A stretch of DNA of 50,570 nt, the filler included, from Bipalium vagum (lineage: Eukaryota), in NCBI GenBank assembly GCA_037834085.1. It is 3 parts of 3 records of this genome, joined end to end, with 100 filler letters (N's around TTAATTAATTAA, not from the genome) between each part and the next. Parts side by side here need not be neighbours in the genome. Positions count along the whole stretch, not along the records: positions 16,416 to 34,801 come from JBBMKC010030534.1; 2 more parts are not named here. One strand, given 5' to 3'. The position numbers and the translations under genes are program-made. Shown piece by piece: positions 31,901 through 34,496 of this stretch (positions are counted from its first letter, which is position 1; every line of letters starts with the position of its first letter). Below the pieces are notes generated by a model, which saw only the letters and a list, made by a program, of their open reading frames with translations, made no database searches and had not been told where the DNA came from.

Positions 31901-34496
31901 TTAATGGGGATGAGACTGATATTTTCTTCAAAATGTTACCTATTAAAACTATGAGACTTAAAGGAGACAAATGCAATGGTGGTAAAATATCAAAAGAAAG
32001 ATAAATAGTTTTTCTTTGTGCTAGTATTATTACTGGTGAAAAGAGGCCTCCTATCATTATTGGAAAATATTTAAAACAGAGATGTTTCAAAAATAAAAAC
32101 ATCGTAGATCTACATTATCATGCAAATAAAAATACTTGGATGACATCCGAAATTTTCAAAAAGGAATTTATGATATGGGATACAAGGCTTAGAAATGCTA
32201 AGGGAAAAACTTTACTGCTCGTTGATAATTGCTCAGCACGTACGGATATCAATAATACTTTAACAAACATAAAAATGGTATTCTTGCCATCAAATAAAAC
32301 AAGTGTGTTGCAACCTATGGATGCAGGAATAATAAAAAATTTTAAAGTGGATTATCGAAAAAGCTTGGTTGTTCAGTTAATAAACTGCATTGACAAAAAT
32401 CGAGAATACAATATTAATATTTTTGATTCATTTCAAATTATATCGGATGCTTAGGAAATAATATCCACAGGAACAATTTATAATTGCTTTCATTATTCAA
32501 TTTTATCGCAACAAGTAAACATTTCTGGGACTTCTAAAAATGTAAATGCTTTAATTGAGAACAAAACTAAAGACAAATCTAATGTTTTAGCCGAATTTTT
32601 TGAATAAGACGAGATTTAGAAGATTATTTAATTATTGATAATGGTTTTGAAGTAATTGGGATTGAAGAAAAAACTGAGAATATCCATGGTTCATCCGAAA
32701 TTACTGTATTAGAACCATTGGATAAAACGAGTGAAATTGAAATTGGTGATGTTTTAAAAGCTTTAAAAATAGTTAAGGAATACTATTTTACAGAAAATTA
32801 CAATAAAGTTATTTATATCAACTTACTTAACGTTGAGAATGATCTCAGAGATAGACTTTTCAAGAAAAAGTTGATCCAGAAAAAAATTACGGAATATTTT
32901 AACTTGAAATAAAATTTAATTCTAATAACATCGTATTTTATTAGTGTTTTATTTTAATGATTATATCGTTAAAACAAATTTTTTCGCTTAAACAGAATAA
33001 ACTTTTGTAGTCCCATTTTTTTTCTGTTTAAGCAGGTTATACTGTAACTTATGCTCGTCTATCAGTAACTCCTCTTTTTTTTAATGTTGAGTTCGTTATC
33101 CGGTTAAACTTAACTTAAATCAAAATCCTCACAATAAAACCTTGTCTGTTTTCTAACGGAGTCAAAGCACTCACGATAATACTTTATCCCCACCCTGATT
33201 GGATCAAAACAAGGCACAGTAAAACTTTTATAGTGCAAAGCTCTTCACACGGACCACCAAAAAGCACAATTCAAATCAATTCCACACAAAAATTTAAAAC
33301 TGATCAATTGTCACAAACGAACGTTAAAATAAGTTATGATCAAGAATAATGTTCAAAGAATACTAGAATAATAATGAACACATAAAAAACCAAATGAATG
33401 AAATAGATTAAAATAAAATCAAGAAATGCCCTCAGCCAGAGCGACAATTGGTCCCCGTGTCGTCCACTAGGCCCTCTTCAGGTCGCCTAGGAATTCCCAA
33501 GCTCGTTGAATCCCCTTGTATAATCCTGTTCCATTGGCATATAGTACAAATAACAAAAAAAATACTGGAATATCTTTCATCGTTCTCCGCAGAAAATCGT
33601 CAAGAAATAAATCACGAATCTGATCGCGAAGTCAAAATTTACCTTCTTCGTCTTCCACAAAAATTCGTCAAGAATAAATCAAGAATTTCCTTACAATATT
33701 TTCTAATGGGCATTGTATTAGAATAGTCGTCTCTTTATATAGTCGTAGAGATTGGACTAAGATTACCAATCGCTACGACCCGAGACGGCTATTTCCAACA
33801 ATAGCCCACTATTTCCAACTTTGTCTTCACGCCGAGACAAAGTCAGATAAAGGCATGCTAATTAGAATATTACTCTGACGACGGAGTCACGGCTATTTCT
33901 AAGAATAGTCTATTATTTTTATTATAATACATCGAAGTCATGGCGTCGGGACTTCGATGTAAATAATTAATATATGTTGTAACTATTGTTACAAATTTTT
34001 CCGTAACTTTTAATTATTATTAATATTATATGTACTCAACATCTACAAATACTAATCACTTGATATAACGGCTTCCAAAATTTTCTTTCCCATATCCATG
34101 TTTTGGTCTGTCATATCATGAATGAAAACCTTAAATAAAAAAATTAGTGACCTTTTAAGATTTTCATTAATACCATGCCTTGTCACTATATTTTAAATAT
34201 ATATCCTCTAGATATTCTTGAATTATGCTGAAATCTTTTTTTTCTAATGCTAGGCTGACATGATTTTTGCCTAATAAATCAGATATTTGTTCCCGAAATC
34301 TAAAGTAATAAATAACGGAAAAGAGAAAAAAATATTCACTTTTCTTGACTAAATTGTTTTATTTCACTAATGATATTCGCTGCTCTTCCGGAATTTTTAA
34401 TAACGACTAAAGGTACAGACTGCTTTAAAGAAAAATAAGCCATCTTCAATGCTCGTAGACCACCTTCATAAAGAATTTGTACAGCAAATTTTTTAT
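16923..34496 (-). CDS. TRPM-family (melastatin-type) transient receptor potential cation channel, multi-exon, 5'-truncated
   Basis: In-frame exons: 34496-34340 (YEGG...PLVVIKNSGRAANII, MHR/SLOG), 34299-34179, 34129-34060, 29894-29788 (LGIAIQFNAYDLA), 29744-29607 (NRHQFVKLFLEN), 25954-25801, 25754-25704, 24580-24328 (FFLWAVL), 24279-24054 (HWGYLSCLQIA), 24002-23943, 21966-21823 (FYNVPKVKF), 21772-21620 (S1-S2, EEIKQ), 20711-20457 (WNIFD, GPKVIMIRKM), 20410-20236 (S5/pore, PYFQSYGE), 18067-17950 (S6, NILLINLLIAMF). Exons after S6 (about 17200-16923) are tentative. Confidence 0.9.
17638..17866. mobile_element. Mariner-derived MITE (229 bp)
   Basis: Perfect 28-bp inverted repeat including the TA target: tattgggttgttcggaaagtcacttcgc (17638-17665) and gcgaagtgactttccgaacaacccaata (17839-17866). 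The interior retains a mariner C-terminal remnant (KLPGRW*KALEQ) on the minus strand. Confidence 0.92.
18815..20038 (-). mobile_element. Decayed near-full-length mariner element inside a TRPM intron
   Basis: Minus-strand motifs EDMHSGK (RSGRP-like), IVTSEEKWI and SDLDPSDYH. TIR-like end tattaggttg at about 20029-20038. Confidence 0.75.
20870..21215 (+). mobile_element. Mariner transposase C-terminal fragment
   Basis: ORFs give SPYSPDLSPCEF (YSPDLAPxD motif) and, after a frameshift, SLKKYLSGRKF. Confidence 0.8.
22400..23813 (-). mobile_element. Highly decayed Tc1/IS630-superfamily transposon remnant
   Basis: Minus-strand motifs KEGSGRP (about 23460) and YVTDEK (about 23230). Boundaries are approximate. 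Confidence 0.5.
25277..25475 (-). mobile_element. Mariner 3'-end fragment with one TIR
   Basis: The minus strand reads LNEYLESKSKDFCIRGIGNLPERWKHIVQNEGTY, followed by a TIR-like ttaggtcatcacataagtaatgcg. Confidence 0.75.
26099..28220 (-). mobile_element. Ty3/gypsy LTR-retrotransposon internal fragment (gag, RT, RNase H), pseudogenised and internally deleted
   Basis: Gag with three CX2CX4HX4C knuckles (27138-27593). RT with IDLENAYY, MPFG, YLDD and FLGH (about 26483-27030). RNase H with DTDAN...ELLAI...RTDH (26099-26419). Stops and frameshifts present; no protease, integrase or flanking LTRs seen. Confidence 0.92.
28335..28816 (-). mobile_element. Mariner transposase 5' half
   Basis: ATG at 28816: MELSRDNFRAMIYYNFRRGLSQQQCINQLISTFGDEAPHKT..., ending just after IVTGDESW. 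Same family as 38185-39170. Confidence 0.8.
30555..31104 (-). mobile_element. Internally deleted Tc1/mariner-superfamily element (maT/DD37D-like transposase C-terminus)
   Basis: TIRs gggtcattcataaaggactgaca and tgtcagttctttatgaatgactc (21/23 match) in TA-rich flanks. ORF SCDLTPLDYFLWSYFKDKVYVNKPQTIDELKEEI. Confidence 0.85.
31111..33044 (+). mobile_element. Full-length pogo/Tigger DNA transposon with a pseudogenised CENP-B-like DDE transposase
   Basis: TIRs cagtataacctgtttaaacagaa and ttctgtttaagcaggttatactg (22/23), TA on both sides, subterminal repeats ttttcgcttaaacagaa. Transposase about 31410-32912 with HTH (SWIERFRKR), NGDET, VDNCSA and QPMDAGII, broken by stops. Confidence 0.95.
33043..33993 (-). 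mobile_element. Candidate solo LTR or unclassified repeat with a hairpin-rich end
   Basis: Bounded by TGTAAC...GTTACA, GC-richer than its flanks, TATA-like TATATAAAG on the minus strand near 33733-33741, no convincing ORF. No target-site duplication found. Confidence 0.45.

Follow-up and report, generated by a model that had tools for sequence, protein, structure and literature searches.

Introduction

The GAG-ENV-POL errantiviruses are Ty3/gypsy retrotransposons of Platyhelminthes with an env gene of the HSV/gB type, exemplified by Smed_errantivirus_1-6 (Chary and Hayashi, 2026, PMC13524379). This class-defining survey leaves LTR structure undiscussed: the supplement lists the primer-binding site (PBS) of the six Smed elements as "none" and gives no LTR coordinates, and the main text does not mention stem-loops, palindromes, or nucleic-acid hairpins. 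Outside Drosophila, little has been written on cis-signals in invertebrate retrotransposons that carry an envelope gene, and a literature search that took in few subscription papers turned up no report of hairpin arrays in U3 for planarian LTRs or animal Ty3/gypsy elements. The closest known precedent for a hairpin-rich U3 is that of the maize Sireviruses, whose LTRs contain a palindrome-rich cis-region in U3 (Bousios et al., 2016, PMC4728375). The packaging signals of alpha- and gammaretroviruses contain GACG-tetraloop hairpins, which the sense RNA carries in its 5' leader (PMC516450).

Here we analyzed a hairpin block in a 50,570-nt stretch of DNA (the window) from Bipalium vagum (GCA_037834085.1). 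Maize Sireviruses and the family of this block share hairpin-forming, GC-rich inverted repeats upstream of a conserved LTR TATA box, a repeat number and sequence that vary among families, and an env-like gene in some elements; the Sireviruses, however, are plant Copia elements in which one 17-nt palindrome with a 1-nt centre is repeated about 7 times and the region is a small-RNA hotspot (PMC4728375). The Bipalium vagum family, in contrast, is an animal Gypsy family with unrelated stems, loops of 6-10 nt with an ACG/CGU core, and compensation at the level of subfamilies.

Results

Borders and genomic setting of the hairpin block

The block is, almost certainly, the promoter-side U3 of a decayed and truncated solo LTR on the minus strand, which has lost its internal region, was cut by a Tigger/pogo transposon, and lies in an intron of a TRPM gene (Table 1). 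Because the primer site, gag, and the 3' internal junctions all place the sense strand on the window minus strand, the hairpins fall in U3, around a TATA-like box, in agreement with the suggestion of an earlier note that this was a structured LTR U3. The putative U3 border was placed about 30 nt downstream of that box. The window LTR aligned with an intact copy (L007) at 76% identity over 1,014 columns. In U3-R-U5 order, the TATA-like box is followed by AATAAA, which 32 of 58 copies retain unbroken. The putative start site between U3 and R is predicted near 33711 of the window, and the poly(A) site past 33226, both on the minus strand. The TATA anchor, found in 92 of 93 copies, was also the criterion by which these copies were selected.

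Table 1. Features of the solo LTR and its surroundings (positions in the window).
Feature	Position	Strand	Remarks
Tigger/pogo DNA transposon	31111..33044	+	TA duplication; DDE_1 and HTH_Tnp_Tc5 matches
Solo LTR remnant, truncated	33045..34030	-	~985 of ~1,020 bp; lacks its two true termini
Polyadenylation-signal site, decayed	33226..33231	-	
U3 (putative)	33712..34030	-	Contains the array of hairpins as well as the beginning of an ATT microsatellite
Stem a	33722..33793		12 bp, 11/12 Watson-Crick and one T-G; encloses TATA and stem b
TATA-like box	33734..33741	-	TATATAAA on element sense strand; TATAAAAG in subfamily 3
Stem b	33742..33779		13/14 Watson-Crick; loop core ACGATCA on window +
Stem c	33787..33806		7 bp, 7/7 Watson-Crick; arm shared with stem a
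Stem d	33818..33843		9/9 Watson-Crick; 9 bp in the window copy, 7-14 bp in relatives
Hairpin m3	33872..33887		Additional to the earlier note; loop GACGAY or CACGGC
c'	33891..33910		Duplicate of stem c
Stem e	33928..33961		12 bp, 12/12 Watson-Crick
Hairpin f	33977..33994		7/7 Watson-Crick; internal to U3
Reading frame with SLOG-domain exon, host TRPM gene	34339..34509	-	E 1e-5, just below the Pfam cut-off

Intact two-ended copies terminate in TGTT...AACA, and the window copy has lost both ends. Positions 33043 and 33993, the limits of the segment marked earlier for a genome search, are not the ends of the element: the inverted repeat of the Tigger/pogo element, a separate neighbour adjoining the U5 end of the LTR, stops at 33044, and its last TG together with the TA duplication makes up the left "TGTAAC". 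The pair TGTAAC/GTTACA was rejected as LTR termini. The intron location was borne out by the SLOG exon, which places the LTR within TRPM on the same strand as the gene, and by TRPM2-like exons at 24024-24602. A search of sequencing runs listed no RNA data set. A contig of one sequencing run was identical to 33779-34300; this run consists of contigs and is possibly the source of the window itself. Summed depth in that run was highest over the TATA/a/b core, depth not being a measure of copy number.

A gag-env-pol Ty3/gypsy family

Collecting genome copies, as had been proposed for defining ends and target duplications, yielded the termini given above and duplications of 4 bp. Scored on two-ended copies, the window copy being truncated, a 4-bp duplication was exact in 11 of 19 and within one mismatch in 18 of 19; exact 5-bp duplications occurred in 1/19 and 6-bp duplications in 0/19. 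Nine LTR-primer-site junctions were recovered, four with an identical 18-mer that is complementary at 17 of 18 positions to the tRNA-Trp of this same genome with CCA added. One contig (L209) carries LTR, UTR, gag, and env together; a second (L216) has gag, env, RT (RVT_1), RNase H (RT_RNaseH), and then a weak integrase match (rve_3, E 0.001); and a third (L211) retains a partial 5' LTR, gag, part of env, and a 3' LTR. Env lay upstream of RNase H on all 8 contigs carrying both, and it matched the chuvirus/gB-like family PF24664 (E 1e-36 and 5e-22); no match was obtained against PDB sequences. No protease was detected among 13 ORF pieces scanned, and the ORF between gag and env matched no convincing family. 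Two 3' junctions have a common internal end, both with a short hairpin motif; a purine run before the 3' LTR is short in one and absent from the other. All family copies inspected are broken, and no whole element was found on a single contig of the assembly (272,664 contigs).

The pieces (gag, env, and RT-RNaseH-integrase) assign the element, previously called unclassified, to the Ty3/gypsy GAG-ENV-POL type. It resembles the flatworm errantiviruses of PMC13524379 in gene order and in its chuvirus/gB-like env (PF24664), which by eye also resembles that of Smed_errantivirus_1 in cysteine spacing and motifs. Unlike the Smed entries, the Bipalium vagum family has a tRNA-Trp PBS and an LTR of ~1 kb. 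Other assignments were discarded. The gag of locus L019 was found on inspection to belong to a nested element. Troyka LTR retrotransposons have a 3-bp duplication, CG...CG termini, and no env (PMC12440569), whereas this family has a 4-bp duplication, TG...CA termini, and env. A Ginger-type DNA transposon would have terminal inverted repeats; here the ends match over 4 nt only, and PBS and gag follow one end.

Folding of the block

Counting pairs stem by stem confirmed the six inverted repeats described before within 33722-33994 (Table 1). The reported repetition of c at 33891-33910 is present as a duplicate, but its pairing is imperfect (6/7 plus one G-T). The loop of stem e is inverted in the window copy relative to other copies. 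Against shuffled sequences the block gave z scores of -7.43 (+) and -6.91 (-), with 0 of 200 shuffles folding as well on either strand. When the window was cut into 280-bp tiles, the block scored best of the 176 that had no N (z -5.0; runner-up -3.9; 12 shuffles per tile). The CpG richness noted earlier also held up: 15 CpG in 273 bp versus 4.7 at the contig rate, with a GC content of 36.6% versus 28.2% for the contig.

In 58 copies, the median z of U3 was -3.4 on the sense and -4.2 on the antisense strand, the antisense strand folding better (p 6e-4, copies non-independent); medians were +0.5 for R and -0.3 for U5, and z fell below -3 in 0% of copies for R and 2% for U5.

Subfamilies and compensatory change

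The TATA anchor was present in 84 of 150 loci, from which 67 distinct copies were retained. Subfamily 2 was recruited by its own search (30 loci, 26 new copies), giving 93 copies altogether; tables for individual stems used only copies in which the stem was found ungapped (69-89 of 93). In three LTR subfamilies, near-perfect hairpins persist as an array, with partly different stems. Subfamilies 1 and 2 differ at 11 of 50 stem positions: five are two-sided changes that replace a Watson-Crick pair by a different one, three lead to G-T, one turns a mismatch into a Watson-Crick pair, and two are losses at stem ends. Random placement would produce at least five doubles with P 7e-4, in what is a single comparison between groups that we defined ourselves. 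Compensatory change, which the earlier note had put forward as a check, was thus found at the subfamily level for stems b (two of the two-sided changes that separate subfamilies 1 and 2), d (several), and m3, whose stem sequence differs in each of the three subfamilies. Stem a has the same sequence in all three and no two-sided change. Of 30 subfamily 3 copies, 23 have a different 12-bp hairpin and 21 have m3 with a new stem.

Other modules are patchy. In the three sets (67, 26, and 30 copies), pattern searches found c' in 8, 0, and 1, stem e in 11, 0, and 0, and hairpin f in 15, 0, and 0 copies. Across subfamilies, the loops have a common core, ACG on the antisense (cDNA) strand and CGU on the sense strand: ACG lay in or at the loop of 119 of 312 perfect hairpins from the 93 non-independent copies, compared with 5 of 86 from shuffled sequences. 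A GACG-loop hairpin is inserted in subfamily 2. In having several short hairpins whose loops contain CG, the array recalls the retroviral packaging hairpins, a resemblance only; unlike in those, the GACG here is on the antisense strand and in U3 (PMC516450).

Covariation exceeded all shuffles only by measures that are inflated by relatedness (57 cells vs 29). With sturdier measures, neither the number of covarying pairs (17 vs 15.4 shuffled, 148/500) nor that of pair types (50 vs 50.2 shuffled, 291/500) was significant. Minor changes were about as frequent in stems (11.7%) as in U5/R (12.5%), so after insertion the stems decay no differently from other parts of the LTR, and the window copy is dead, decaying intronic DNA with no detectable constraint. 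Rare changes had no strand bias (p 0.69-0.88); an apparent excess suggesting A-to-I editing (73 vs 42) disappeared once only rare changes were counted.

Discussion

Since related subfamilies keep hairpins while their sequence changes, the folds probably served the element while it was active. Selection on the folds is likely, though template-switch mutation could give the same pattern, and retention of the U3 hairpins for a structural role of any kind appears reasonably probable. For the U3 hairpin block of this gag-env-pol Ty3/gypsy solo LTR, we tentatively prefer, as a nearly balanced call, that selection kept the folds as an RNA 3'-end signal. Template switching during copying would have built and re-perfected the inverted repeats, occasionally flipping a loop, and active lineages would have maintained an array of stems, 5-14 bp long and with a common loop core, nowhere but in the ~250 nt upstream of the start. 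As all stems lie upstream of the putative start, they would be present in RNA only in the U3 of the 3' LTR. There a zinc-knuckle Gag or a host factor may bind them for export, localisation, or packaging. Loop orientation may not be essential, as the d loop is flipped in copies L004 and L029. U3 pairing that outlasts its sequence in three subfamilies would make a short, testable target for RNA export or packaging. Against this reading stands the absence of covariation in stems a and c.

A competing account sees U3 as a dsDNA enhancer-motif array, with ACG cores as factor sites and with functionless folds left by template switching or duplication during reverse transcription. Template switching is expected to leave inverted loops, extended stems, and multiple compensations (Monttinen and Loytynoja, 2022, PMC8794818), and all three are present in the U3 hairpins. 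Loops are inverted in 4 of 93 copies, so a template-switch-type process does act in this family, and by the same report such a process alone can create stems, mimic compensation, and invert loops, which weighs against selection. That work concerned RNA genes and DNA replication; here reverse transcription is an additional candidate route. The direct-inverted-direct layout of the a/c unit, the coming and going of e, f, and c' between copies, U3 types shuffled across the U5 tree, and the non-significant sturdier covariation also fit a mutational by-product. On the other side, unrelated stem sequences stay perfect in three subfamilies, and the folds are confined to U3: the variable R region is without them, which argues against a position-blind mutational process. 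We find this account doubtful. The three-subfamily set offers a natural series for separating selection from template-switch mutation.

The preferred RNA signal must also be weighed against folds that act as DNA, either as hairpins in minus-strand single-stranded cDNA (the plus-strand template) or as cruciforms opening the TATA between a and b. The better folding of the window + strand, which has cDNA polarity, and the wobble pairs at the subfamily level, three of four of which are G-T on that strand, speak more for a cDNA or antisense role than for one in sense RNA. All three subfamilies have the TATA-like box within the a/b internal loop, and the loop flips imply pairing at a DNA stage. The strand bias is small, however, the copies are related, and rare changes are unbiased. 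Short stems with 6-10-nt loops form cruciforms poorly, which we counted against a DNA-level role; overall we consider it unlikely.

A wider proposal is that flatworm-type GAG-ENV-POL errantiviruses possess a modular U3 signal, conserved in structure, of interchangeable hairpins with one loop core, rebuilt by template switching and swapped among lineages by recombination, which either an element-encoded protein or pairing between loops would read for export, dimerisation, or packaging. We offer it as speculation with a small chance of being right; if true, an invertebrate enveloped retroelement would have, in its 3' LTR, a counterpart of the packaging hairpins of retroviruses.

Stems a and c exclude each other, as noted before, because 33787-33793 (7 nt) belongs to both, and they were thought switch-like; such a switch would expose or hide the TATA region. 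Both persist in all three subfamilies, and c is the predicted winner on the sense strand of the window copy (0.81 vs 0.14) and in 12/56 and 8/24 copies. Yet the predictions favour a in most copies (subfamily 1: median P(a) 0.73, P(c) 0.01; subfamily 2: 0.62 and 0.00), c shows no covariation (1 cell vs 2.3 shuffled, 452/500) and has a C-A mismatch on the sense strand in subfamily 2, and a lacks two-sided change. A switch is therefore very unlikely.

A structured ncRNA gene, a host-co-opted element, or an ssDNA virus origin or terminus, which strong folding and CpG richness might suggest, is scarcely credible given the primer site, gene order, LTR-gag junctions, and 4-bp duplications, the background-rate decay of the stems, a best Rfam score of 23 bits versus a gathering score of 80 (30000-34800 gave two chance-level matches, neither near gathering), and the lack of any viral or metagenome contig matching the core pattern exactly, a kind of search that misses diverged relatives. 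A hammerhead or retrozyme was likewise rejected, the CTGACGA in the window being a decayed m3 hairpin.

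Hairpin block and genomic setting

All six inverted repeats of the earlier note (hairpins a to f) were present within 33722-33994, with 11/12, 13/14, 7/7, 9/9, 12/12, and 7/7 positions paired, respectively; the second c-like repeat (c', 33891-33910) contained one G-T pair, and a seventh hairpin, m3, was located. The 286-nt block (−90.8 kcal/mol) folded far better than shuffled sequences (z −7.4 on the plus strand, −6.9 on the minus strand) and ranked first among 176 window tiles. The second-best tile (38482-38761, z −3.9) lay, by eye, within mariner-like transposase sequence. 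The reported CpG richness was borne out (15 observed, 4.7 expected), as was the intronic location, because the block lies between a SLOG exon and TRPM2-like exons further to its left. One TRPM intron held three stacked transposons.

Features in and around the hairpin LTR copy (window positions)
Feature	Position	Strand	Remark
Short mariner-like element	30558-31102		terminal inverted repeats, TA flanks; directly left of Tigger element
Tigger/pogo element	31111-33044		adjoins LTR copy on left
TATA-like box, TATATAAA	33741-33734	minus	hairpins lie around box
Hairpin m3	33872-33887		seventh hairpin
SLOG exon	34339-34509

Identification of the LTR

Searching the genome with 33043-33994, as the earlier note had proposed, returned at least 52 matches (40 candidates scored of 2,640), and the LTR end motifs occurred 45 and 104 times with at most one mismatch. 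Two-ended copies (710-1,142 bp, TGTT...AACA) carried a 4-bp target duplication, exact in 11 of 19 and within one mismatch in 18. Copies, ends, and duplications were thus obtained, but the limits of the query proved not to be true ends: the window copy lacks both, and its right side fades at about 34030. TGTAAC was rejected as the left end, being the TG of the Tigger/pogo element plus its TA duplication.

The TGTTAC end was joined to a primer site at nine loci, four of them with an identical 18-mer (17/18 complementary to the genome's tRNA-Trp plus CCA), followed downstream by a UTR and a zinc-knuckle gag. The opposite end was joined to a common internal 3' end at two loci, one behind RNase H coding sequence. 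The sense strand is therefore the window minus strand and the well-folded hairpins lie in U3, in agreement with the suggested structured U3. An AATAAA about 500 nt downstream of the TATA-like box was intact in 32 of 58 copies. Two tRNA-Trp-like loci uncalled by ARAGORN (L151, L152) matched the primer site exactly at their 3' end; the called tRNA-Trp (L153) differed by one base.

An ORF leading into a chuvirus-like fusion protein (PF24664) had 157 matches in the genome. Locus L216 showed the order gag, env, RT, RNase H, integrase (the last a weak match), and, among the env matches listed (all but 7), env lay upstream of RNase H on all eight contigs common to both match lists. No whole element was found on any contig obtained, and no protease in the 13 ORF pieces scanned. 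The label "unclassified" does not hold: with its gag-env-pol order this Ty3/gypsy element belongs to a class already known, and the window copy is almost certainly a dead solo LTR of such enveloped elements. Elements with a gB-type env and the gene order GAG-ENV-POL are described from Platyhelminthes, Nematoda, and Bryozoa in PMC13524379 (Chary and Hayashi); the env of Smed_errantivirus_1 therein resembles ours in a by-eye comparison. The LTR matched animal Metaviridae features (TGTT...AACA, AATAAA, weak TATA) in PMC3601003, which ties stem-loops mainly to R. Troyka retrotransposons (PMC12440569) were excluded.

Between gag zinc knuckles and glycoprotein, L210, L211, and L212 carried a long conserved coding stretch with an arginine-rich segment and no convincing family match. 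At L065, L071, L083, and L211, deleted derivatives had U3 or LTR pieces fused directly to env or gag; L211, which retained gag, part of env, and a 3' LTR without pol, possibly represents a non-autonomous lineage.

Conservation of the folds

Across 58 copies, U3 had a median z of −3.4 (sense) and −4.2 (antisense), and R (+0.5) and U5 (−0.3) were unfolded. In a 67-copy alignment, 82.5% of cells were paired and two-sided changes affected 57 cells against 29 in shuffles, a measure inflated by relatedness; the two least inflated measures were not significant (148/500 and 291/500 shuffles). Stems changed at 11.7% and U5/R at 12.5%, and, the copies being old, changes within copies are mostly neutral decay after insertion.

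Subfamily set 1 (66 copies) and set 2 (26) differed at 11 of 50 stem positions: five two-sided Watson-Crick exchanges (b twice, d twice, m3 once), three changes to G-T on window plus, one repaired, and two lost at stem ends. For this single contrast, at least five doubles had P about 7e-4 under random placement. The anticipated compensation thus appeared between subfamilies, in b, d, and m3, and failed in stem c and in the sturdier within-alignment measures. Set 3 (30 copies) retained a, c, and most of b, with a 7-bp d bearing another compensation, m3 re-stemmed in 21, and a different 12-bp hairpin, its loop without ACG, in 23. This conservation of structure over sequence is the part worth following.

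Hairpins b, d, m3, and e, like a set-2 insertion, had ACG in their loops on window plus (ACG-bearing hairpins, 119/312 versus 5/86 in shuffles). By pattern search, 4 of 93 copies had a loop in inverted orientation, one of them being the window copy (hairpin e); e, f, and c' were optional modules. Set-2 U3s were dispersed over a U5-end tree (59 copies), on which the well-supported branches require four or more changes, a pattern compatible with recombination.

Origin and possible role

Template switching would make and repair the stems, which bear signatures of the kind described in PMC8794818, and selection in active lineages would retain them, since stems are confined to the region upstream of the promoter and are absent from the variable R region. 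Some structural function is rather probable. Their likeliest use would be as structured RNA in the U3 of the 3' LTR, although a role as an RNA 3'-signal is tentative, at slightly under even odds. What speaks against that step is a slightly stronger folding of the antisense strand, to which three of four subfamily-level wobble pairs also belong, so the folds may instead act in cDNA or as a cruciform. The array may also be a pure by-product. The "switch-like" a/c arrangement is weak, as no covariation was found in stem c in the copy alignment.

For folds in U3, the closest structural precedent comes from maize Sirevirus LTRs, in which a palindrome-rich region precedes the TATA box (PMC4728375); the literature searched yielded no account of an array of this kind in the LTRs of animal Gypsy elements. 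The internal 3' ends of L064 and L211, immediately ahead of the 3' LTR, shared a short conserved hairpin (GATTCG...CGAATC), in the position where a junction stem-loop is reported for Sireviruses.

Another TRPM intron contained a decayed Gypsy internal region (26100-28200, minus; zinc knuckles, RT, RNase H), its RT only ~40% like that of the hairpin-LTR family. The third part of the window held, at 39152-39195, a 44-bp piece from the U5 end of the hairpin LTR (86%). At L019:1370-1480, a different small LTR element (~90-bp LTR-like end, gag) was nested within a copy of the hairpin LTR.
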